Counted from the first letter of the stretch, positions 2,553 through 60,133 are shown. The stretch is DNA of 64,000 nt from an uncultured Oscillospiraceae bacterium (GCA_910588045.1 CAJUPS010000008.1:4012-68011), one strand, 5' to 3'. Notes: a model not told the origin generated them from the letters alone. Made by a program: numbers and translations.

Positions 2553-4436
2553 TCACGCCCGCAGGCTCAGCTCCGCCTTGAACAGGTCCCCATCCACGTA
2601 CAGCTCAAACCCGCCGCCCATGAGGTCCATGAGGCTCCGGGCGATGTTCAGCCCCAGGCCGCTGCCCTCGGTGTGCCGGGAGGCGTCGCCCCGGACAAAG
2701 CGCTCCATGAGTTCCTCGGCGGACACGTTCAGCGGGTCCCGCGAGATGTTCTTCATGGACAGATACACCCGCCCATCCCGGGCGGCCAGGTCCACGTAGA
2801 CCCGGGTCCCCGCCATTGCGTACTTGCACACATTACTCAGCAGGTTATCCAGTACCCTCCATAGGAGACGCCCGTCCGCCAGGGCCATCAGGTTGCCCTC
2901 GTAGGTGTTGACGATGACCTCCAGCTTCCCCGCCGCCAGCTTTTCATCGTAGTCCCCGACGGCCTGGTGGATGATCTCGTTGACCACGATGGGCTCCAGG
3001 CTCACCGTCATGTTCCCCGTGGACGCCTTGCTGGCCTCCACCAGATCCTCCGCCAGCTTCTTGAGCCGGTGGGACTGCCGGTCCAGCACCTGCAAATACT
3101 CCTGCGCGGCGGGCGGCAGCTCCTCCTTTTTCAGCAGGTCCACATAGTTGACTATGCTGGTGAGGGGGGTCTTGATGTCGTGGGAGACGTTGGTGATGAG
3201 CTCGGTCTTCAGCCGCTCGCTCTTCAGGCGCTGCTCCACGGCCTTGTTCATGCCCACGCCAATGGCGTTGAGGTCCTCCCCGTGGCGCTTGACGTCAAAG
3301 TACATCTTCTCGGTGTCCAGCTGGGCATCCAGGTCTCCGGCCGCCAGGGCGGACCCCATATCGCAGACCTTTTGCAGTTGGAGGGACAGCCACGCCGCCC
3401 CCACCACCAGGACCGCGTCCAGCGCCACCGCCATCAGGAGGAAAAAAAAGCTCTCGTAGGTCTCCAGAATCAGCATGACCAGGATGGATTGTACGCCCAG
3501 TATGCCCAGCACCGCCAGGATCACCCGCCAGGTCATGGGCAGGATGCGCACCAGCTCCATAAAGGCCCGCCAGCACCGCTTCCAGGTCCGCACGCTCCAG
3601 CGGCACAGCCGCCATACCACGGTGTTGCGCCACCACTTGCCCTTTTTGAACCGGGTGGCCAGGGTCAGCAGCGTGGCCAGGGTGACCGCCGCGCAGAAGA
3701 AGATGGACAGGCAAAGCATAGCGATTTCCAGGGCGATGGGCGCTCCGCTTCCGGTTGCCCCCGGAATCATGGCGGCACAGAATATTCCCACCGCTATGCA
3801 CAGGTACAGATCCAGGGGGATCCGGTCCTGCCAGTTGAGGGAAACCCCCTCCTTCCCCGCCTTGTGCCCGGCGGCGCAAAAGAGGAACACCAGCGCCGCG
3901 AGCACCAAGGCATACAGCAGCACCGTCAGCACCACCGTCATGCCAAAGGGCAGCGCGTGGAGCCGGTTGTACATACTCAGCCGCACGGAGAAGCCGCTGC
4001 CGGAGGGCAGGTTCCGGGCGACATAGCCCTTGACGGTGAAGACCGCCCCGTCCCGGCGGAGGGTCTCCGAGGCGGCGGCGAGAGGCGAGGCGGGGACCTC
4101 GCCCCAGGTGCCCACCAGCGCGCCGTTCGCGTCGTAGACCTGGGCGGAGAAGCCCCCCAGCCGCTCCAGCTCGTACTGGGCGTTATAGCCGTAATAGATG
4201 TAGCCGTCGTAGACCTCGCTCTCGCTGAGCGTATAGTCCAGGGCCCAGCCCATGGCATCGCTCATGGCGTTTTTGCACAGCAAATCATTCTGAAATTTGT
4301 CCGCCGTGCCATAGCCGAAGCAGATATACGTCACAGAGAAGGAGCCCAGCACCGCCCCCGCCGTAGCCGCGAAAAGCAGCAGGATGGCGGCGCACTTCGC
4401 CACGAGGCTCTGCCGCAGGTCCTTTTTCTTTTCCAT
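2553..4436 (-). CDS. Membrane sensor histidine kinase (HisKA + HATPase_c)
   Basis: 627 aa with several TM segments, an H-box ITNVSHDIKTPLTSI, and N/G boxes (LLSNVCKYA, GSGLGLNIARSL). Sits directly downstream of an OmpR-type regulator gene. Confidence 0.85.
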   Translation of the reverse strand: MEKKKDLRQSLVAKCAAILLLFAATAGAVLGSFSVTYICFGYGTADKFQNDLLCKNAMSDAMGWALDYTLSESEVYDGYIYYGYNAQYELERLGGFSAQVYDANGALVGTWGEVPASPLAAASETLRRDGAVFTVKGYVARNLPSGSGFSVRLSMYNRLHALPFGMTVVLTVLLYALVLAALVFLFCAAGHKAGKEGVSLNWQDRIPLDLYLCIAVGIFCAAMIPGATGSGAPIALEIAMLCLSIFFCAAVTLATLLTLATRFKKGKWWRNTVVWRLCRWSVRTWKRCWRAFMELVRILPMTWRVILAVLGILGVQSILVMLILETYESFFFLLMAVALDAVLVVGAAWLSLQLQKVCDMGSALAAGDLDAQLDTEKMYFDVKRHGEDLNAIGVGMNKAVEQRLKSERLKTELITNVSHDIKTPLTSIVNYVDLLKKEELPPAAQEYLQVLDRQSHRLKKLAEDLVEASKASTGNMTVSLEPIVVNEIIHQAVGDYDEKLAAGKLEVIVNTYEGNLMALADGRLLWRVLDNLLSNVCKYAMAGTRVYVDLAARDGRVYLSMKNISRDPLNVSAEELMERFVRGDASRHTEGSGLGLNIARSLMDLMGGGFELYVDGDLFKAELSLRA

Positions 4437-5362: not shown

Positions 5363-7309
5363 TTATACGTCCATCGCCGCGTGGTAGCCCCAGTAGACGG
5401 CGTTGGTGATGGTAGACACCCGGGAGGCGTCGCCGATGACACGGACGAAGGGGGCAGCGTCCTGGAGCGCCTCCACCACATCGGTGCGGCTCTTCTGACC
5501 CAGGGCGCAGATCACGCTCCCGCCGGGGATCAGGACCTCGCTGCCGTCGGGAGACGCACACACCACGCCCTCCTCGGTGACCCGCAGGGCCTTGTGGCCG
5601 GTGTGGACCGTGACGTACTTCTCAATCTCCTTGAGCAGCAGGGGACGGTGGCGAACATTGGCGTCGGGGGCCAACACGTCCCGCATCTCCACCAGGTGGA
5701 CGCGCTTGCCCTCCATGCCCAGGTGGATGGCGCACTCGCAGCCCGCCAGGCCGCCGCCCATGACCACGACCTCGTTCCCCACCTTGTCCTTCTCCAGATA
5801 GTAGTCGTTGACCACCGCCACGTTGTCCCCCCTCAAGCCGGGGATGGGGGGAACCAGGGGCGCGGAACCCGCGGCGATGATGAGGGCATCCGGGGCCTCC
5901 CGTTCCACATATTCCCGGGTGACCTCCGTATGCAGGCGGACCTCCACCCCGGCGTCCTTCGCCAGCTTGGCGTAGGTGCCCGCCAGGCGGTACATATCGT
6001 ACTTGAAGGGCAGGGCCTGCTCGCTTCTGAGGATGCCGCCCAGCTCGCCCTCCTTCTCGCACAGGATGACCCGGTGTCGCCGGCGGGCGGCGGTGTAGGC
6101 GGCGTACAGACCGCCGGGACCTCCTCCGGCCACCAGGACCTTCTTCTTCACCGGCGCGGGATAGACCACGTCGCCCTCGCACTCCCGGCCAATCAGAGGA
6201 TTGACCGTGCAGCGGCGGGTGGCGGTGGCGGCGCGCTCCGCCATGCAGGTGAAGCAGCGCAGACAGCGGACGATGTCCTCGTCTTTGTTGGCCATGACCT
6301 TGTTGGGCAGGTACGGGTCCGCCAGCAGGGCCCGGCCCATGTAGACGATGTCGGCCTTCCCGGAAGCGACGATCTCCTCCATCTGCGCCGGGTCGTTGAG
6401 CCCGCCCAGGGTGGCTACGGGCTTGCTGACGTGCTTTTTGATCTCCGCGGCCAGGAAGACGTTCCGGCCGTGCTCGGTGAACATGGACGGGTGGGTGATG
6501 CCGAAGGTCTTCTGGTATGTACCGGCGGAGACGTGGATCAGGTCCACGTAGGGCTCGATCATCTGAGCGATGCGCACGCCCTCGTCCAGGTCGTAGCCCT
6601 CCTCCACGAACTCCGCGCCGCTCATGCGGAACTCGATGGGGAAGAAGGGCCCCACGGCCTCCCGCACGGACTGGAGCACCTCGACAGCCAGGCGGCAGCG
6701 GTTTTCCAGGGAGCCGCCGTACTCGTCGGTGCGCTTGTTGAACATGGGGGAGAGGAACTGGTTGATGAGCCAGCCGTGTCCGCCGTGGATCATCAGTATC
6801 TCGAAGCCCGCCCGCTTGGCCAGGCCCGCCACGTGGCCGTAGGAGGCCACGATGTCCGCGATCATCTCCTTCGTCAGCGCCTTGACCTCCACGCCGTCGG
6901 CGCGGACCGTGTCGGAGGGGCCCCACTGGTTCATGGACTTCTGCCGGGACTTGTCCGTCATGTAGGTCCCGGCGAACATGCCGGAGTGGCTGAGTTCCAG
7001 GCTGGGGATGGCCCCGTGGCGGCGGATGGCGTCGGCGGTGTAGGTGGCGCAGGCCAGGGAGTTGAGGATGCTCTCATCCAGGTGGTAGGCGTGGGAGCCG
7101 TCGGTGGCAGGGTGGACCATGCACTCCGAGACGGTGACCGCCGCCGCGCCGCCCTTGGCCCGCAGCTCATAGAACGCGGTGGACTTCGGGCCGATACAGC
7201 CGTCGTTGGTGATGTCCGTACCGCCCATGGGAGCGGAGAACATCCGGCTGCGGAAGGTCGTCCGGCCCAGGGTGATGGGGGAACAGAGATGGGGATATTT
7301 GCGTTCCAT
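5363..7309 (-). CDS. Old-yellow-enzyme-type FMN oxidoreductase fused to an FAD/NAD(P)-binding domain (2,4-dienoyl-CoA / enoate reductase family)
   Basis: 648 aa with an N-terminal OYE-like TIM-barrel region, a Cys cluster CLRCFTCMAE...RRCTVNP, and two dinucleotide folds (VLVAGGGPGG, VVVMGGGLAG). Confidence 0.8.
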   Translation of the reverse strand: MERKYPHLCSPITLGRTTFRSRMFSAPMGGTDITNDGCIGPKSTAFYELRAKGGAAAVTVSECMVHPATDGSHAYHLDESILNSLACATYTADAIRRHGAIPSLELSHSGMFAGTYMTDKSRQKSMNQWGPSDTVRADGVEVKALTKEMIADIVASYGHVAGLAKRAGFEILMIHGGHGWLINQFLSPMFNKRTDEYGGSLENRCRLAVEVLQSVREAVGPFFPIEFRMSGAEFVEEGYDLDEGVRIAQMIEPYVDLIHVSAGTYQKTFGITHPSMFTEHGRNVFLAAEIKKHVSKPVATLGGLNDPAQMEEIVASGKADIVYMGRALLADPYLPNKVMANKDEDIVRCLRCFTCMAERAATATRRCTVNPLIGRECEGDVVYPAPVKKKVLVAGGGPGGLYAAYTAARRRHRVILCEKEGELGGILRSEQALPFKYDMYRLAGTYAKLAKDAGVEVRLHTEVTREYVEREAPDALIIAAGSAPLVPPIPGLRGDNVAVVNDYYLEKDKVGNEVVVMGGGLAGCECAIHLGMEGKRVHLVEMRDVLAPDANVRHRPLLLKEIEKYVTVHTGHKALRVTEEGVVCASPDGSEVLIPGGSVICALGQKSRTDVVEALQDAAPFVRVIGDASRVSTITNAVYWGYHAAMDV

Positions 7310-39471: not shown

Positions 39472-39732
39472 GGTATTCCTTTATTCAATAGATTTGCGCG
39501 GATGCACGCTTCGGCTTATTATAAACGGTTTTCCGGAAAAAAGCAATCCCTTCGGGCAAAAATCGTGATACCGGCGGGTATTGACGTTTTTCTGCCGTTT
39601 GTGCTATGATGAACCCGGCAAGGATAAAAACACGTCCCGGTCGGTAGTCCGGGAGCGGCGGTATGCCGTCAGTAGCCTTCCTCCTTTGGTCGTCCGTTCC
39701 TTGCGGCAGCATATAAAAGGAGGAATCTGAGC

Positions 39733-51969: not shown

Positions 51970-52686
51970 CTATAGGGGCAATAAAATCTCCGTGGCGAAC
52001 ACCCCCGGCTCATTCTGCCGGTTGACGTAGCCGCCGTACTTCTCCACCACCCGGTCGATGCGCTTGAGGCCGTGGCCGTGGTTCCCCCGCTTGGAGGAGA
52101 TGTAGGCCGTGTCGATCTTCCGCACGGTTTCGGCCGTGGCGTTGGAAATGGAGACGTAGAGCTGCTGCCTGAGCACGCCGATGTAGAGCCTGAGGAACCG
52201 CTGCCCCTCCTCCACCTTCTCGCAGGACTCCATCGCGTTATCGATGAGGTTTCCCAGGATGACGCACAGGTCGATGTCGGAGACGGTGAGGCTCTTGGGC
52301 GCCACGGCCCTGAAGTTGAGGTCGATGCCCTGCTTGAGCACCAGGGAGAGCTTGGCGTTGAGGATGGCGTCCACGCTGACATTTCCGGTCTCCGCCAGGG
52401 CGTGGATGCCGTCCAGATCCTTCTCCAGGCGGTCCAGGTACTCCCTGGCCCCCTCGCTCTGCCCCATGTCCAGGCGGGCCTTGAGCGTTTGCAGGTGGTT
52501 GTGGTAGTCGTGCCGCCAGCCCCGCATGGTCAGATACAGATTCTCCACCTCGGCGATCTGCCGGGCCAGGAGCTTATTCTGATAGGCGGCGATCCGCCGG
52601 TCGCCGCGCCTGTGCAGCAGCCAGACCGCCAGGACCGCGCCGAGCGCAGAGCACACGGGGACCAGCAGAAGAACAACCCAGCCCAT
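51970..52686 (-). CDS. HPK10-type (AgrC/LytS-like GHKL) histidine kinase with a single N-terminal TM helix
   Basis: 238 aa with H-box MRGWRHDYHNHLQTL, N-box LGNLIDNAME and G-box GHGHGLKRI. There is only one hydrophobic segment (residues 1-25). Confidence 0.75.
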   Translation of the reverse strand: MGWVVLLLVPVCSALGAVLAVWLLHRRGDRRIAAYQNKLLARQIAEVENLYLTMRGWRHDYHNHLQTLKARLDMGQSEGAREYLDRLEKDLDGIHALAETGNVSVDAILNAKLSLVLKQGIDLNFRAVAPKSLTVSDIDLCVILGNLIDNAMESCEKVEEGQRFLRLYIGVLRQQLYVSISNATAETVRKIDTAYISSKRGNHGHGLKRIDRVVEKYGGYVNRQNEPGVFATEILLPL

Positions 52687-52689
52687 GCC

Positions 52690-53400
52690 CTAACCCTCCC
52701 GATAGTAGTTGATAAACGCCCGGTTCAGCTTCTCCCAGGCCCCCCGGCTGACGGGGACGACGCGCTCCCCCTCCAGAGAGCACTCATTCCGCCCCACCCG
52801 CTCCACATAGCGCAGATTCACCAAAAAGCTCCGGTGTGTGGGAACAAAGTCCTCCCCCAGCCGGGAGGCCAGGGCAGAAAGGGCGGCTTTCACCGTGATC
52901 GGCCCCGCCGCCGTCTCCACCAGCACCGTATGGCCCCGGGCCTCCAGGTAGATAATGCTGTCCTCCTCCACCCGCCGCCGCTCCCCGTCCACCTCCAGCA
53001 CCACGTAGCGGCTCGTCCGGGTGATGTGCTCCAGGGCGAGATCCAGCAGGGGGAAGAGATTTTCCTCCGTCATCGGCTTCATGAGATAGCGCAGCGCGGC
53101 CACCTCGTACCCATCAAAGACGCAGCCCGAATCGTTGGTGAGAAACGCCAGCGCCACCCGGGCGTCCGTCCTGCGGATCTTCCGGGCCACCTCCAGGCCG
53201 CTGAGGTTCCCGCCCCCTAAGTCGATGTCCAGTAGGATCAGGTCGACGGGATAGCTGCCCGCCATCTCAAAGAGGAGCTCCTCCCCGCTGGCGAAGGCGC
53301 GGATATGGCAGGGGGTCCCCCGCGCCGCGCCCCAGCGTCCGGCGAGGGCGTCCAGCCGCACCGCCTGGGTCTCCTCGTCATCACAGATGGCTATGTGCAT
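52690..53400 (-). CDS. LytTR-family response regulator
   Basis: Receiver (MHIAICDDE, LILLDIDL) plus a LytTR DNA-binding domain (IIYLEARGHTVLVET..., THRSFLVNLRYVERV). Confidence 0.88.
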   Translation of the reverse strand: MHIAICDDEETQAVRLDALAGRWGAARGTPCHIRAFASGEELLFEMAGSYPVDLILLDIDLGGGNLSGLEVARKIRRTDARVALAFLTNDSGCVFDGYEVAALRYLMKPMTEENLFPLLDLALEHITRTSRYVVLEVDGERRRVEEDSIIYLEARGHTVLVETAAGPITVKAALSALASRLGEDFVPTHRSFLVNLRYVERVGRNECSLEGERVVPVSRGAWEKLNRAFINYYREG

Positions 53401-56994: not shown

Positions 56995-58728
56995 TTATGC
57001 CTTGGCCGCAAGGGCGGCTTCCAGTTCGCCGTAGAAGACGGTCAGACGCTCGCCAAGGTCCATAACGATCATGTCGTCCTCGCCTTCGACGGTGACAACA
57101 AAATCAGTCAGGCCCTTGTACTCCACAAAGCTCTCCAGAACCTCGCGGAGAATCGCTACGGTCACAAGCTCGTCGGGGTCAAGGGGTTCGTCTTCGGTGT
57201 CGATGACCAGCGCCTCGTCAAGAGCCCAGTAGATCGCCTGTGCGTAGTCGTGGTCTGCCCACTGGAAGTCCTCGGGGAGCTCCACATCCTCGACGCCCTC
57301 GTACTGGCGCAGAGCCTCCAGCAGCTCGGCCGTGGAGATCAGGCCAGCCAGAGGGATTTCCTCGTCTTCGATGGTGGTAGCGTCGGCAGAAGCAGCAGCA
57401 AAGCCATCCACCATGGGAATGTCTTCATTCCCGGGAATAACAGGATCGTCTGGCTGCTCATTGTCCGTGGAAGGAACATAGAGAGAAAGCACCCTGTCAA
57501 AGTCCAGAGATGTTGTTCCCTCCGGCAGTTTTCCCGCGTGGATGGGATCTCCATTGTGGTCGTAAACGACATCCAAGTGGTTCCCCTCCGCGTCCGTAAT
57601 GGTGACGTTGCCCTCCTCGTCCACGGAGATGGTATAGCCGTTGCTGGTGTAACTGCCCATGCGTACCGCCATGACCGTGCCGGACTGTGCCTCATTTTCG
57701 GAGATCTCACCGCCGGACATCTGGAAGTTGCCGCCTTTGTTCTTGTCTTGATCTACCCCTATACCGCCTCCGCTGACGGACGATGTATTCTGGGTAATCT
57801 TGCCGCCAGTCATGTTGACTGTACCGTCAACCCGCACATATACACCGCCGCCACAGCTGTCCACATCTACCAGCTGGCCGCCGGACGGGCGTTTCCCCAC
57901 GGCTTTGTTGCCGCTGATCTCACCGTCACTCAAATTGAGGGTTCCATCTGATACAAAGACACCGCCGCCGTACTTGCCAGCCCGGTTGTCCGTGATCTCA
58001 CCACCGGTCATGTTAAAGGTAGCGCCTGTTGTCACACTTACACCGCCACCTACTGAACCACTCCAGTTATGTGTGATCTCTCCACCGGACATGTTGAAGG
58101 TCCCTCCGTAGTACACTCCAACACCGCCGCCTGTAGCGTTCTGCTGGTTGTCGCAGATGATCCCACCGGTCATATTGAAGGTAGCATTGTCCACATTTAC
58201 ACCCCTACCGACGTTTTGGGTGACCTTACCGCCGTTCAATGTGAACTCGCCGCCATTGTTTACAGCGATACCACCCGCGTTGGAACCGGTAATGATGCCC
58301 GTCTCTTCGCCGCGGGACTCAGCGCCTTCTTCCATTACTTTATCCATTATGGTCAAAGAGGTATCTTCACCGGTTACCTTAATAACAGGCCCGCTTTTTC
58401 CTCCTCGCCAGAAGATATAGCTGTCGTACCCTTCGTCGTAATTATCTTTAGTGGTCACCTTTTCGTTGAGTTGCAGCTTGTGGCCATTCAGGTCGATGTT
58501 GGCGTCTATGCCATCGCTGATAACGAGGGTCTTATCCAGGGTGAAGTCGCCGCTCAGGTAGTAGTCATACGCTTTGCTCTCGCTGCCCTCTACATCATAT
58601 CCGAGCAGTGCGCCAGTGTCGGTGTCGATGTAGTCCGTCGTAAGCTCCACCGCTGCAAACGCGGTGGTAGACAGCAGCGACAGCGCCATGATGAGGGCCA
58701 GGACCCGAGAAAAAATGTGCTTCTTCAT
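56995..58728 (-). CDS. Secreted repeat protein with a predicted parallel beta-helix (adhesin-like), signal peptide and acidic C-terminal domain
   Basis: Start reset to ATG 58728 (MKKHIFSRVLALIMALSLLSTTAFA, a signal peptide). Seven tandem repeats of about 25 aa of the type G-x-TFNM(T/S)GGEI(T/S)xN....GGGV.V. Confidence 0.75.
   Translation of the reverse strand: MKKHIFSRVLALIMALSLLSTTAFAAVELTTDYIDTDTGALLGYDVEGSESKAYDYYLSGDFTLDKTLVISDGIDANIDLNGHKLQLNEKVTTKDNYDEGYDSYIFWRGGKSGPVIKVTGEDTSLTIMDKVMEEGAESRGEETGIITGSNAGGIAVNNGGEFTLNGGKVTQNVGRGVNVDNATFNMTGGIICDNQQNATGGGVGVYYGGTFNMSGGEITHNWSGSVGGGVSVTTGATFNMTGGEITDNRAGKYGGGVFVSDGTLNLSDGEISGNKAVGKRPSGGQLVDVDSCGGGVYVRVDGTVNMTGGKITQNTSSVSGGGIGVDQDKNKGGNFQMSGGEISENEAQSGTVMAVRMGSYTSNGYTISVDEEGNVTITDAEGNHLDVVYDHNGDPIHAGKLPEGTTSLDFDRVLSLYVPSTDNEQPDDPVIPGNEDIPMVDGFAAASADATTIEDEEIPLAGLISTAELLEALRQYEGVEDVELPEDFQWADHDYAQAIYWALDEALVIDTEDEPLDPDELVTVAILREVLESFVEYKGLTDFVVTVEGEDDMIVMDLGERLTVFYGELEAALAAKA
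57688..58281 (-). repeat. Intragenic tandem repeats of about 75 bp encoding beta-helix coils
   Basis: The protein motifs FTLNGGKVTQN, FNMTGGIICDN, FNMSGGEITHN, FNMTGGEITDN, LNLSDGEISGN, VNMTGGKITQN and FQMSGGEISEN span residues about 150-347. Confidence 0.7.
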
Positions 58729-58756
58729 AGTTTCGTTTCCTTTCTTTGCATTATTC

Positions 58757-58937
58757 GGACGCAAAGGGAGTCCGGTAACCGAACGAGCATAGAGCCCGAG
58801 GGGCCCCACAGCCTCTGGTTTTGCGTCTTGCGGTTTCCCGCAATTTGCCGTGCAACCGGTCGAGCGTGGGGCGTTTGCCCCGACGCACCTGGCTTTGCGT
58901 CCCACTGTTTCCAATGGTTTGCCGATGGGATTTGCGT
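58757..58937 (-). ncRNA. Tandem c-di-GMP-I (GEMM-I)-like riboswitch aptamers in the 5' leader of the beta-helix protein gene
   Basis: Minus-strand aptamer 1 core is GGCAAACCATTGGAAACAGTGGGACGCAAAGCC (58923-58891), nearly identical to the Vc2 core GGCAAACCAUUCGAAAGAGUGGGACGCAAAGCC as I remember it. Aptamer 2 core is GGCAAATTGCGGGAAACCGCAAGACGCAAAACC (58849-58817). Both have a GNRA (GAAA) loop on the first helix and a second helix downstream. Confidence 0.65.
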
Positions 58938-59051
58938 AGGTAATTGATTTTGGGATGCATCCTCCTTCCATCAATTTATAGTCGAACTCCGTTTGGACAT
59001 ATACACCACCTGACCCGCCCCGAGGGTATGGCGGAAACAGGAGCATACACT

Positions 59052-59075
59052 TGTTGACAAAATTTTTATTTTGTC
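59052..59075. repeat. Left inverted repeat (IR-L) of the candidate invertible element
   Basis: TGTTGACAAAATTTTTATTTTGTC is the exact reverse complement of 59276-59299. Confidence 0.9.
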
Positions 59076-59124
59076 CTTTGGTTGCACGCTTTTAGGCAAC
59101 TAAGCCCCAAAGAAAAGCAAAAAA

Positions 59125-59190
59125 GGGCATGAAAAGTAAGGACTGCGCAAAATGCTTTTTCACAGTCCTTGGATTTTCATGTCCTTTTTT
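59125..59190. terminator. Bidirectional intrinsic terminator inside the invertible cassette
   Basis: Long imperfect hairpin GGGCATGAAAAGTAAGGACTG ... CAGTCCTTGGATTTTCATGTCC, with TTTTTT after it on the plus strand and TTTTTTGCTTTT after it on the minus strand. Confidence 0.6.
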
Positions 59191-59239
59191 CGTTAAACCG
59201 CTGATTTTGGGAAAACCGTCTTTCTTTTTTGGAAATCTA

Positions 59240-59248
59240 TGCTATAAT
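59240..59248 (+). promoter_or_regulatory. Extended -10 promoter element inside the invertible cassette, currently facing the recombinase gene
   Basis: TGCTATAAT (TGn + TATAAT). There is no good -35, as is common for extended -10 promoters. I saw no comparable -10 on the opposite strand of the cassette. Confidence 0.5.
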
Positions 59249-59275
59249 GAGGGAAAGCTAACTATGTAGAAATGC

Positions 59276-59299
59276 GACAAAATAAAAATTTTGTCAACA
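59276..59299. repeat. Right inverted repeat (IR-R) of the candidate invertible element
   Basis: GACAAAATAAAAATTTTGTCAACA is a 24/24 match to the reverse complement of IR-L. It lies 10 bp from the recombinase stop codon. Confidence 0.9.
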
Positions 59300-59308
59300 T
59301 GACGAAAG

Positions 59309-60133
59309 TCACGTGACCAGCCCCAACTTTTCCAGCTGCCGCGCATGTTCCGCACCGGAGGTCATCAGATAAATCCGGGTGGTGTTGATTGAACTATGGC
59401 CGAGAACGTCCGCCAACTTTACGATGTCCTTGCAGACTTTATAGAAGGTTGTGGCGAACAGGTGGCGGAGGTTATGGGGGAAGACTTTGCTTTCCTCCAC
59501 GCCTGCCTTTTTGCAGATGGCTTTCATTTCGCGCCAAATCTGGCCGCGCGAGATCGGCTTACCGCTTCCGGTGAGAAAAATCTCCCCGGAGGCGATTTTG
59601 TTTTTCTTGGCGTACTTGAGCAACTTCCGACGGAGCTTGTTGGGAAGTAAAATGCTGCGGATTTTGCCCTTGAGATTGATGTCCGTCGCCGTCCGGTTTG
59701 CAGCTTCAACAGTAATATAGCGGACCTCCGAAACGCGGATCCCCGTGGCGCAAATGGTCTCCATCAGGAGCTCCAATCGCTCCTGGCCCGTCTCACGGGC
59801 GGCGTCGAGTAAGCGCTGGTACTCCGCCTTGGTCAGCTCCTTGTTCTCCTCCCGGAACGCCTTCCTCTGCACTCGGAGAAACTTGATTTTGCAGTCTTCC
59901 CGACCCAGAAACCTGAGAAACCGATTGACAGCGGACAACATGGAGTTTATCGTCACTGGCGCATATCCCTGTTCCAGCAGGTACTCCCGCCAGCCGGATG
60001 CCTCCTCCAACTCCAGGTCATCCAGCCATGCCGCAAACGCCCGTACGTCCCGGCGGTACTTCTCCACAGTCCCTTTACTGCGCCCCTCGCTCTCCAAATA
60101 AGAGGTGAAGTTTAATATATCGTCTATACGCAT
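59309..60133 (-). CDS. Site-specific tyrosine recombinase (XerC/D-integrase family)
   Basis: 274 aa with an N-terminal SAM-like core-binding domain. Catalytic signature R (ATGIRVSE), HxxR (HNLRH) and H...Y (LGHSSINTTRIY). Confidence 0.9.
   Translation of the reverse strand: MRIDDILNFTSYLESEGRSKGTVEKYRRDVRAFAAWLDDLELEEASGWREYLLEQGYAPVTINSMLSAVNRFLRFLGREDCKIKFLRVQRKAFREENKELTKAEYQRLLDAARETGQERLELLMETICATGIRVSEVRYITVEAANRTATDINLKGKIRSILLPNKLRRKLLKYAKKNKIASGEIFLTGSGKPISRGQIWREMKAICKKAGVEESKVFPHNLRHLFATTFYKVCKDIVKLADVLGHSSINTTRIYLMTSGAEHARQLEKLGLVT

Follow-up and report, generated by a model that had tools for sequence, protein, structure and literature searches.

A candidate two-layer control cassette of invertible promoter and abutting twin c-di-GMP-I aptamers in an uncultured Oscillospiraceae bacterium

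How is a surface-protein gene controlled when its leader carries two abutting aptamers for cyclic di-GMP (c-di-GMP) and a single expression platform? The question arises from a 64,000-nucleotide stretch of DNA (hereafter the window) from an uncultured Oscillospiraceae bacterium (GCA_910588045.1, CAJUPS010000008.1:4012-68011), in which a sequence-only reading had proposed tandem c-di-GMP-I (GEMM-I) aptamers in the leader of a gene for a beta-helix protein. The answer that we favor on balance is a two-layer control cassette for a wall-anchored surface protein, in which an invertible promoter is followed by a twin-aptamer translational OFF switch. The same order of modules (recombinase, invertible promoter, twin aptamers, one probably translational platform and secreted beta-helix protein with an SLH-like anchor) recurs in several copies per genome among gut Oscillospiraceae. 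What our analysis chiefly adds to the earlier reading is the recombinase-inverton layer, which is the more unusual part, together with the single-platform dual-aptamer design.

Two abutting c-di-GMP-I aptamers

The minus-strand sequence quoted in the sequence-only reading was located at 58937-58757, as claimed, and each of its halves exceeds the curated gathering score of the c-di-GMP-I family in Rfam (RF01051; 35 bits, applied to each half separately). The two aptamers lie side by side:

58851-58924, minus strand: aptamer 1, c-di-GMP-I, with a GAAA-capped P1, the core ACGCAAAG and a P2 without a canonical tetraloop receptor (Rfam match 58933-58851)
58774-58850, minus strand: aptamer 2, c-di-GMP-I, directly abutting aptamer 1, with a P2 that carries the receptor-like CUGUGG...CUAUG (Rfam match 58859-58771)

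When the whole window was scanned against Rfam, RF01051 was listed only at 58859-58771 on the minus strand (56.5 bits, E = 2.2e-8), and a permissive scan of 58600-59300 again listed this downstream match alone. The upstream half, scanned by itself (58850-58990), matches the full model at 58933-58851 with 50.2 bits (E = 1.7e-9). Its absence from the whole-window scan is due to its unpaired 3′ flank, which overlaps the 5′ flank of the downstream match by 9 nucleotides. A covariance model that we built and trimmed to the aptamer core was run over the 64 kb and gave exactly two matches, which abut, at 58924-58851 (73.4 bits) and 58850-58774 (69 bits). RF01051 ranks first within its clan at either site, two unnamed matches of lower score from that clan having been suppressed. 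The negative control, the c-di-GMP-II family RF01786, gave no match at E ≤ 10 in the permissive scan of 58600-59300.

Both aptamers follow the order GGCAAA, 6 bp, GAAA, 6 bp and GACGCAAA(G/A)CC in the RF01051 alignments, that is, a GNRA-capped P1 followed by the ACGCAAA core. Each has a G (58923 and 58849), an A (58896 and 58822) and, within the 3′ tails GC and ACC, a C at the positions that we take, by the numbering of the Vc2 structure, to be equivalent to the ligand contacts G20, A47 and C92. The first aptamer ends at 58851 and the second starts at 58850, such that no platform lies between them, and this zero-spacer junction is found as well at the homologous loci L007, L015, L019, L045 and L055 and at the P0159 locus. 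Judged from sequence, the pair very probably represents two aptamers of functional type. One feature weighs against this assignment, namely that P2 of aptamer 1 lacks the tetraloop receptor and bears non-canonical marks in the RF01051 alignment. GEMM-I types without a tetraloop receptor exist. A conventional P1 helix was also considered for aptamer 2, and no convincing 5′ partner for it was found on reading the window sequence.

Homologs of the regulated open reading frame (ORF) and their loci all came from Oscillibacter- or Oscillospiraceae-type gut metagenome assemblies, and every related leader of sufficient length carries two or three RF01051 aptamers, with a triplet in L013. Fifty-eight matches, representing 34 distinct aptamers, were aligned over 18 pairs with a covariance model, because MAFFT put the variable P2 apex in the wrong place; it did likewise with pair five of the platform hairpin described below (hairpin X), which was therefore tabulated by hand. 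Canonical pairs fill 86.8% of the alignment cells, and compensatory double changes occur in 12 of the 18 pairs among the 34 distinct aptamers. These values were reached in none of 500 shuffles, and they collapse when the pairing partners are slid. The P1 pairs are 96% canonical, with compensatory changes in six of six. First-position aptamers (88.7% canonical) and last-position aptamers (85.4% canonical) show compensatory changes in 11 of the 18 pairs each. Because each position covaries separately, both halves appear to be under selection as folded aptamers, and the tandem that had been proposed thus stands on model scores and covariation alike.

The second aptamer of L006 (3882-3955) has an A in place of the G equivalent to G20 (UAGCAAC). 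An A at this position is associated with selectivity for 3′,3′-cyclic GMP-AMP (3′3′-cGAMP) in GEMM-Ib, and the L006 tandem may therefore sense two different dinucleotides. Two distant homologs, L012 (612-933) and L014 (1360-1692), have neither recombinase nor switch; there, a TTGACA/TATACT-type promoter is followed by an aptamer, an intrinsic terminator and a second aptamer that adjoins the Shine-Dalgarno (SD) sequence. This is a classical two-platform tandem within the same protein family.

The expression platform

The sequence-only reading had noted that the conserved core GGACGCAAAG (58902-58893) is complementary to a segment closer to the gene, CTTTGCGTCC (58766-58757), and the complementarity is indeed 100% over 10 nucleotides. 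GCAAAGAAAGGAAAC comes after CTTTGCGTCC, and the start codon ATG lies at 58728. The alternative pairing proposed on this basis is one component of a fuller scheme: the pairing is real in the sequence and is seen in one unconstrained minimum free energy fold, and two elements have to be added to it, a covarying hairpin CGGAY/RUCCG that presents CUUUGC and a GCAAAG box before the SD sequence:

58756-58774, minus strand: hairpin X, CGGAC (58774-58770) paired with GUCCG (58760-58756), with the switching strand CUUUGC (58766-58761) in its loop
58738-58749, minus strand: pre-SD box GCAAAG (58749-58744), overlapping the SD sequence AGAAAGGA (58745-58738), recognized by comparison of related leaders

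Compared across 12 distinct platforms, the plan consists of an aptamer tail (A/G)CCGGA(C/U), 1-3 nucleotides, CUUUGC, (G/A)UCCG, 6-9 A-rich nucleotides, GCAAAG, (A/G)AAAGG, 8-12 nucleotides and AUG. The fifth pair of hairpin X is C:G in eight platforms and U:A in four, with no mismatch, and CUUUGC and GCAAAG are both present in 11 of the 12. The geometry fits an H-type pseudoknot with a 5-bp stem 1, a loop 1 of 1-3 nucleotides, no spacer, a 6-bp stem 2 and an A-rich loop 3, in which the 3′ strand overlaps the extended SD sequence AGAAAGGA. This extended SD sequence is complementary to the 3′ tail of Firmicute 16S ribosomal RNA. The switching-strand segment CUUUGCGUCC is in turn complementary over 10 nucleotides to the core of aptamer 1; in window-type leaders this core pairing runs over 10 perfect bp with aptamer 1, and in the others it spans 9-10 bp and includes one bulge or mismatch. 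At every scored locus in which an aptamer core was matched, the calculated duplexes of the switching strand are more stable with that core (-10 to -16 kcal/mol) than with the pre-SD box (-8 to -9 kcal/mol). Since the aptamers are not followed by a terminator, control is likely to be translational and exerted through a single platform.

Together, these elements suggest how ligand binding could be coupled to translation. Without ligand, CUUUGC(G)UCC would pair with the GGACGCAAAG core of an aptamer and the SD sequence would be open. With ligand bound, the cores would be buried, and hairpin X (with the aptamer 2 tail) and the GCAAAG pairing would form, as either an H-type pseudoknot or an extended hairpin, such that the X/GCAAAG structure occludes the ribosome-binding site and translation is repressed by c-di-GMP. 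Both aptamers would act on one switching strand, which would sharpen the response. The OFF direction, which we prefer while judging it an even call, is favored on the precedents of Cd1, an OFF switch that lacks P1, and Vc2, an OFF switch that acts on translation (PMC9262584).

Several observations weigh against this scheme. The support for hairpin X is one covarying position, probably reflecting one or two evolutionary events; L031 keeps the hairpin but has neither CUUUGC nor GCAAAG, which means that not every platform can form the pseudoknot; and a mismatch or bulge breaks the core pairing in L013, L006 and L037. In nearest-neighbor folding the alternative folds lie within ∼1-3 kcal/mol of each other, and the probability that GGA is unpaired is ∼0.2 in both the aptamer-held and the free state, such that SD accessibility is not clearly changed. 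An adhesin-type cargo would also more intuitively be induced by c-di-GMP.

The same anatomy could work with the opposite sign, a less probable arrangement in which c-di-GMP would turn translation ON and expression would require the ON phase of the promoter together with high c-di-GMP. In the ligand-free state, the X/H pseudoknot or an extended hairpin, UCC-CUUUGCGU/AUGCAAAG-GGA, would then mask the SD sequence by default, and a local hairpin that masks GGA is in fact predicted in most folds and is the default in most unconstrained ones. Ligand would have to capture the aptamer 2 tail (CCGGAC) in the junction, thereby breaking hairpin X and freeing the SD sequence; the hairpin does use the conserved tail directly 3′ of the pocket, but aptamer 2 has no 5′ P1 partner in the window with which to capture it, and the perfect 10-nucleotide complementarity between switching strand and aptamer core would be left without a role. 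Precedents fall on both sides. The tandem GEMM-I riboswitches of Bacillus adhesin genes and the c-di-GMP-II riboswitches of surface-anchor genes act, or are presumed to act, as ON switches (PMC4759541, PMC9481103), and the cargo here is adhesin-like and wall-anchored by its predicted fold, whereas clostridial class I riboswitches such as Cd1 are OFF switches (PMC9262584).

The repressing scheme that we prefer has both aptamers respond to ligand. It is improbable that only one of them does so, with aptamer 1 acting as a 'ghost' scaffold or decoy that supplies GGACGCAAAG and the response being 1:1 and non-cooperative. Ghost aptamers are known in glycine riboswitches (PMC9481103), and by direct reading the switching strand pairs perfectly with the core of aptamer 1 and over only 8 bp with that of aptamer 2. 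The missing receptor motif and non-canonical P2 marks of aptamer 1 would also suit a ghost, as would L055, in which the P2 apex of aptamer 1 holds an insertion of ∼130 nucleotides, showing that large apex insertions are tolerated. Such insertions are nonetheless confined to the apex, with the base of P2 preserved; moreover, the RF01051 score of aptamer 1 is 50 bits, its bases equivalent to G20, A47 and C92 are retained, and first-position aptamers covary as well as last-position ones.

The predicted invertible promoter element

A second putative layer of control lies upstream of the aptamers, where a recombinase gene adjoins a repeat-bounded element of 248 bp (59052-59299):

59309-60133, minus strand: gene for a tyrosine (Xer-like) site-specific recombinase of 274 aa, reading toward the switch, on the same strand as the riboswitch gene and directly 5′ of it
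59276-59299, unstranded: recombinase-proximal inverted repeat of 24 nucleotides, TGTTGACAAAATTTTTATTTTGTC on the minus strand, starting 10 bases past the recombinase stop
59076-59275, unstranded: predicted invertible interior, 200 bp, AT-rich, assembled in the OFF orientation
59240-59248, plus strand: extended -10 promoter TGCTATAAT, directed antisense into the 3′ end of the recombinase gene and thus facing away from the riboswitch gene
59119-59190, unstranded: long hairpin, a putative bidirectional intrinsic terminator, formed by inverted repeats I2 and I4 with flanking A-tract and T-tract
59052-59075, unstranded: gene-proximal inverted repeat of 24 nucleotides, 100% complementary to 59276-59299
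58925-59051, minus strand: leader spacer from switch to aptamers, in which no sigma-70-type promoter or terminator was detected

The recombinase contains the Pfam domains Phage_integrase (2.4e-25) and Phage_int_SAM_1; among NCBIfam models, it matches XerA, XerD and XerC below their equivalog cutoffs and a FimB/E-type invertase weakly. Aligned to the XerC-like 4a8e, its catalytic motifs RVSE...HNLRH...GHS...TTRIY are intact (R...HxxR...H...Y). The inverted repeats are perfect over 24 nucleotides and lie 200 nucleotides apart, with zero matches expected by chance. The promoter was identified by motif, read directly from the sequence. Across 12 distinct switches, TGCTATAAT is near-invariant, with a single G/A position that varies (one switch has TGTTATAAT), and the most conserved interior block, ATTATAGCA, is the reverse complement of the -10. 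The central hairpin is the sole consensus structure of the interior alignment, with four compensatory pairs and flanking A/U tracts, and is read as a bidirectional terminator that would insulate the promoter from recombinase read-through. A scan of 58600-59400 for promoters and terminators yielded no promoter-like site on the strand of the gene and no minus-strand terminator.

In the arrangement that we propose, the recombinase would invert the 200-bp segment between the 24-nucleotide repeats (59299-59052). In the OFF phase, which is the assembled state, the promoter would drive antisense transcription of the recombinase gene, leaving the surface-protein gene without a promoter; in the ON phase after inversion, the promoter would read through the gene-proximal repeat into the leader. 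Expression would thus need both phase ON and low c-di-GMP.

The switch geometry, comprising repeats 198-208 bp apart, a recombinase homolog and the same interior plan, occurs in ∼30 fetched homologous loci, where the switches adjoin paralogous and orthologous surface-protein genes; a recombinase homolog adjoins every related switch. Repeat arms are identical within each locus and vary between loci in their central bases (TTTTT, TTTAT, TTTCT, TTGCA, TTTCA and GTTTA). Even in L006, where the repeat sequence is unrelated to those of the other loci, the arms still match each other. Such concerted change of both arms is required of recombining partner sites.

Recombination itself is visible at homologous loci, for which recombinase homologs were sampled, with their contigs, from more than 8000 proteins at E ≤ 1e-40. 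The promoter faces the cargo gene in L069, L090 and L006, the last a distant locus whose TTGAAA-17-TAGAAT promoter occupies the mirror position. The P0218/P0202 locus is OFF in 14 assemblies and ON in one, L069; L069 and L065 differ by a 239-nucleotide exact reverse complement that is bounded by the repeats, and their flanks match (397 of 400 nucleotides downstream). At the P0129 locus, L090 is ON and L089 and L091-L093 are OFF, and L090 is related to L089 by the same type of clean inversion. At both loci, twin aptamers again precede SLH/MucBP-type genes, and the recombinases are 74% and 89% identical to that of the window, the higher value belonging to P0129. An invertible promoter can be assigned to this switch family with high confidence. 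About 95% of all sampled assemblies are OFF, which is consistent with a phase switch biased toward OFF, given that the majority state is all that a consensus assembly displays. Reference assemblies show the cassette genes in their silent state, and users of such assemblies should be warned accordingly.

At the window locus, it is quite likely that the promoter is still actively inverted. The orientations seen there weigh against this view: only OFF was found, in the window, L001 and L002 and in the orthologs L015, L016, L019 and L021, and an exact search of metagenome, genome and viral collections for the flipped-state junction of this locus returned no match. All switches with window-type repeats in the initial sample likewise had one orientation, and a repeat scan of viral contigs returned one unrelated single-repeat contig only. 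It is nonetheless very improbable that the element is static in this genome, whether locked OFF or serving as a terminator/antisense-promoter module while the gene uses an unrecognized spacer promoter or read-through, for although the single orientation at the window locus and its close orthologs, the preponderance of OFF assemblies and a conserved leader block, TATATGTCCAAACGGAGTYCGAC, between switch and aptamers would all suit such a state, the 24-nucleotide repeats are perfect, the recombinase is intact, the two same-family loci described above were caught in both orientations, the spacer has no promoter-like site, the terminator should block read-through in either orientation and consensus assemblies report the majority state only.

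Two other identities for the element were rejected. A miniature inverted-repeat transposable element or transposon insertion does not account for an element that is always found beside a recombinase, in an unchanging position across paralogs and species, with conserved promoter and terminator; a terminator of the cwpV type would depend on orientation, whereas this hairpin, with a U-tract on either strand, should stop transcription in both directions. Nor were contig breaks close to the leader or switch taken as evidence for inversion, since near-identical paralogous cassettes in multiple copies break assemblies too. All 10 P0129-carrying contigs (L089-L098) end 10-430 nucleotides past the recombinase stop, at or inside the switch, which fits repeat- or inversion-induced assembly breaks and the systematic fragmentation of such loci in metagenome-assembled genomes.

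An 11-nucleotide direct repeat, TCCCAAAATCA on the minus strand, is present at 59202-59212 in the switch interior and at 58945-58955 in the leader. Its interior copy is part of AAAATCAGCG, a block that is invariant in 12 distinct switches and lies ∼50 nucleotides upstream of the -10, and may be a regulator or UP-type site.

Other features of the leader spacer vary among cassettes. TTGACA boxes in the L006, L007 and L055 leaders were considered as a constitutive spacer promoter and rejected, as they have no -10 and are absent from the window. A 69-aa ORF (58960-58751, minus strand) starts right after the purine-rich GGAAGGAGG and spans both aptamers, and gene callers predict a similar ORF of 83 aa in the L055-L060 paralog (L055 2139-2390); we judged the 69-aa ORF spurious and probably a GC-rich artefact. 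Several leaders nevertheless conserve the GGAAGGAGG block that precedes the aptamers. Some cassettes have an ORF of 162-176 aa between the invertible switch and the twin aptamers. The ORF in L037 (∼960-1430; also in the L024-L043 group) contains the AP2-like motif GVxWxKRxxKWRAxI, and the one in L064-L076 (2710-3240) has no Pfam match; either would be co-transcribed from the invertible promoter and lie outside riboswitch gating. Between switch and aptamers, the L007 leader (3488-3590) contains a perfect 27-nucleotide inverted repeat with a 49-nucleotide spacer, a feature that the window does not have and that resembles a REP-like or hairpin insertion.

Cargo proteins and relation to known systems

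The gene downstream of the platform encodes a protein with several distinct regions:

56995-58728, minus strand: regulated gene for a secreted protein of 577 aa, with a signal peptide, a right-handed beta-helix (∼55-410), an acidic/Pro linker and an SLH-like helical C-terminal domain

Its start is the ATG at 58728; the mechanical ORF list gives instead an in-frame ATG farther upstream. In an AlphaFold2 model (pLDDT 78.8), the linker is disordered. Foldseek, with no strong E-value for any match, aligned the beta-helix to adhesins, lyases and tailspikes and the C-terminus to SLH domains at a probability of 0.94-1.0 and a TM of ∼0.4. Searches of the 577-aa protein against Pfam and NCBIfam gave no match, and the SLH profile PF00395 was not detected; its relatives carry Beta_helix, Chlamydia_PMP and, in some, SLH (PF00395) Pfam domains. 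On the basis of the model, we term the C-terminal domain SLH-like and do not assign it SLH membership.

Between paralogs and orthologs, the stretch from recombinase to signal peptide and the C-terminal domain are 72-95% identical, and the beta-helix passenger is unalignable. When window positions 61227-56947 were compared with L019, L015, L045, L055 and L007, L019 was found to have the upstream synteny of the window and not the downstream, and L015 the reverse, a pattern that suggests passenger swapping or rearrangement at cassette boundaries. At least three to four paralogous cassettes are present per genome or sample in GCA_965613965.1 (L046, L056 and L091) and SRR10593860 (L001, L017 and L047), each with its own recombinase, 89-96% identical to that of the window. 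Cassettes within one genome each drive a different SLH-like beta-helix or MucBP protein, and their abundance (more than 8000 recombinase homologs and several cassettes per genome) points to a major, so far unstudied means of surface variation in uncultured gut commensals. More speculatively, these might be multi-copy, modular antigenic-variation cassettes of gut Oscillospiraceae, each combining its own inverton with cooperative dual or triple aptamers and one pseudoknot platform into a stochastic-AND-signal gate, with the conserved ends (recombinase to signal peptide, and C-terminal anchor) serving as sites at which beta-helix passengers are swapped between loci.

Tandem GEMM-I has precedents, as has the combination of riboswitch and inverton; the abutting pair of aptamers on one platform and the self-contained cassette look like a new variation on these and not like something categorically new. 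Tandem c-di-GMP-I, the commonest tandem class, comprises 347 doublets and 12 triplets (Sherlock et al. 2022, PMC9481103), and these have been described as stacked complete riboswitches (PMC4759541, PMC12452182). The Bacillus precedent invoked by the sequence-only reading is correct in itself (PMC4759541, PMC9481103), but those tandems are complete riboswitches with platforms of their own, whereas the window pair shares one. Like Bc3-5 of Bacillus thuringiensis, window-type leaders place two or three class I aptamers in the 5′ untranslated region before a surface- or adhesin-type gene; unlike that type, in which each aptamer has its own terminator platform and the tandem is pseudo-cooperative, they have no platform between aptamers. 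Compared with Vc2 of Vibrio cholerae and Cd1 of Clostridioides difficile (RF01051), the window aptamers fit the full model, with a GAAA-capped P1, ACGCAAA core, P2 and G, A and C contact bases, and, as in Cd1, have no obvious closing P1 helix. They differ from both in abutting, in the receptor-less aptamer 1 and in sharing one, apparently translational platform with a hairpin directly 3′ of the pocket.

Abutting c-di-GMP-I aptamers on one platform are not among the tandem arrangements listed in PMC9481103, PMC4759541 and PMC12452182. Homologous adjacent aptamers followed by a single platform are the arrangement of the glycine riboswitch as defined in PMC9481103, which differs in ligand and fold and is cooperative; the likeness to it here is one of architecture. 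Tandem c-di-GMP-I riboswitches have so far been treated as independent stacked switches, each with its own terminator, and the present design, if true, would add to glycine a second ligand class in which genuine cooperativity between aptamers could be studied.

In Clostridioides difficile, riboswitch and inverton are combined at flgB (Cd1 with the flagellar switch) and at cmrRST (a c-di-GMP-II riboswitch with the cmr switch), both inverted by RecV (PMC5386303, PMC8844915). These loci resemble the window in having a c-di-GMP riboswitch and a repeat-flanked element (predicted to be invertible in the window) in one 5′ region and a tyrosine recombinase, and the cmr switch likewise carries a promoter in its ON orientation. 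In C. difficile, however, the riboswitch lies upstream of the switch and has a single aptamer, and RecV is remote and shared by many switches, whereas the window cassette runs from recombinase through switch and twin aptamers to gene, with its own recombinase per cassette and several cassettes per genome. The closest analogue at the DNA level is the fimB/E-fimS-fimA layout of Escherichia coli, in which the recombinase genes (FimB and FimE) also lie directly upstream and read toward a short invertible promoter of a surface-structure gene, the population is OFF-biased and the OFF promoter faces the recombinase gene. It differs in its 9-bp repeats, as compared with the 24-nucleotide repeats, internal bidirectional terminator, single adjacent recombinase and downstream riboswitch layer of the window. 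As a compact, portable series of stochastic DNA switch and second-messenger sensor, the cassette would make the interplay of bet-hedging and signaling testable outside C. difficile.

A few genes in the vicinity may be recorded. In L019, the orthologous cassette has a PilZ-domain gene (5649-6332) on its downstream side, and in the window a LytTR response regulator and GHKL kinase pair lies ∼4 kb downstream (51970-53400). A crude motif filter for GGDEF and HD-GYP over window ORFs of at least 150 aa gave no candidates. A further riboswitch aptamer, the full-length azaaromatic (yjdF) RF01764, is present in the window at 39614-39713 on the plus strand and scores 78 bits against a gathering score of 45.

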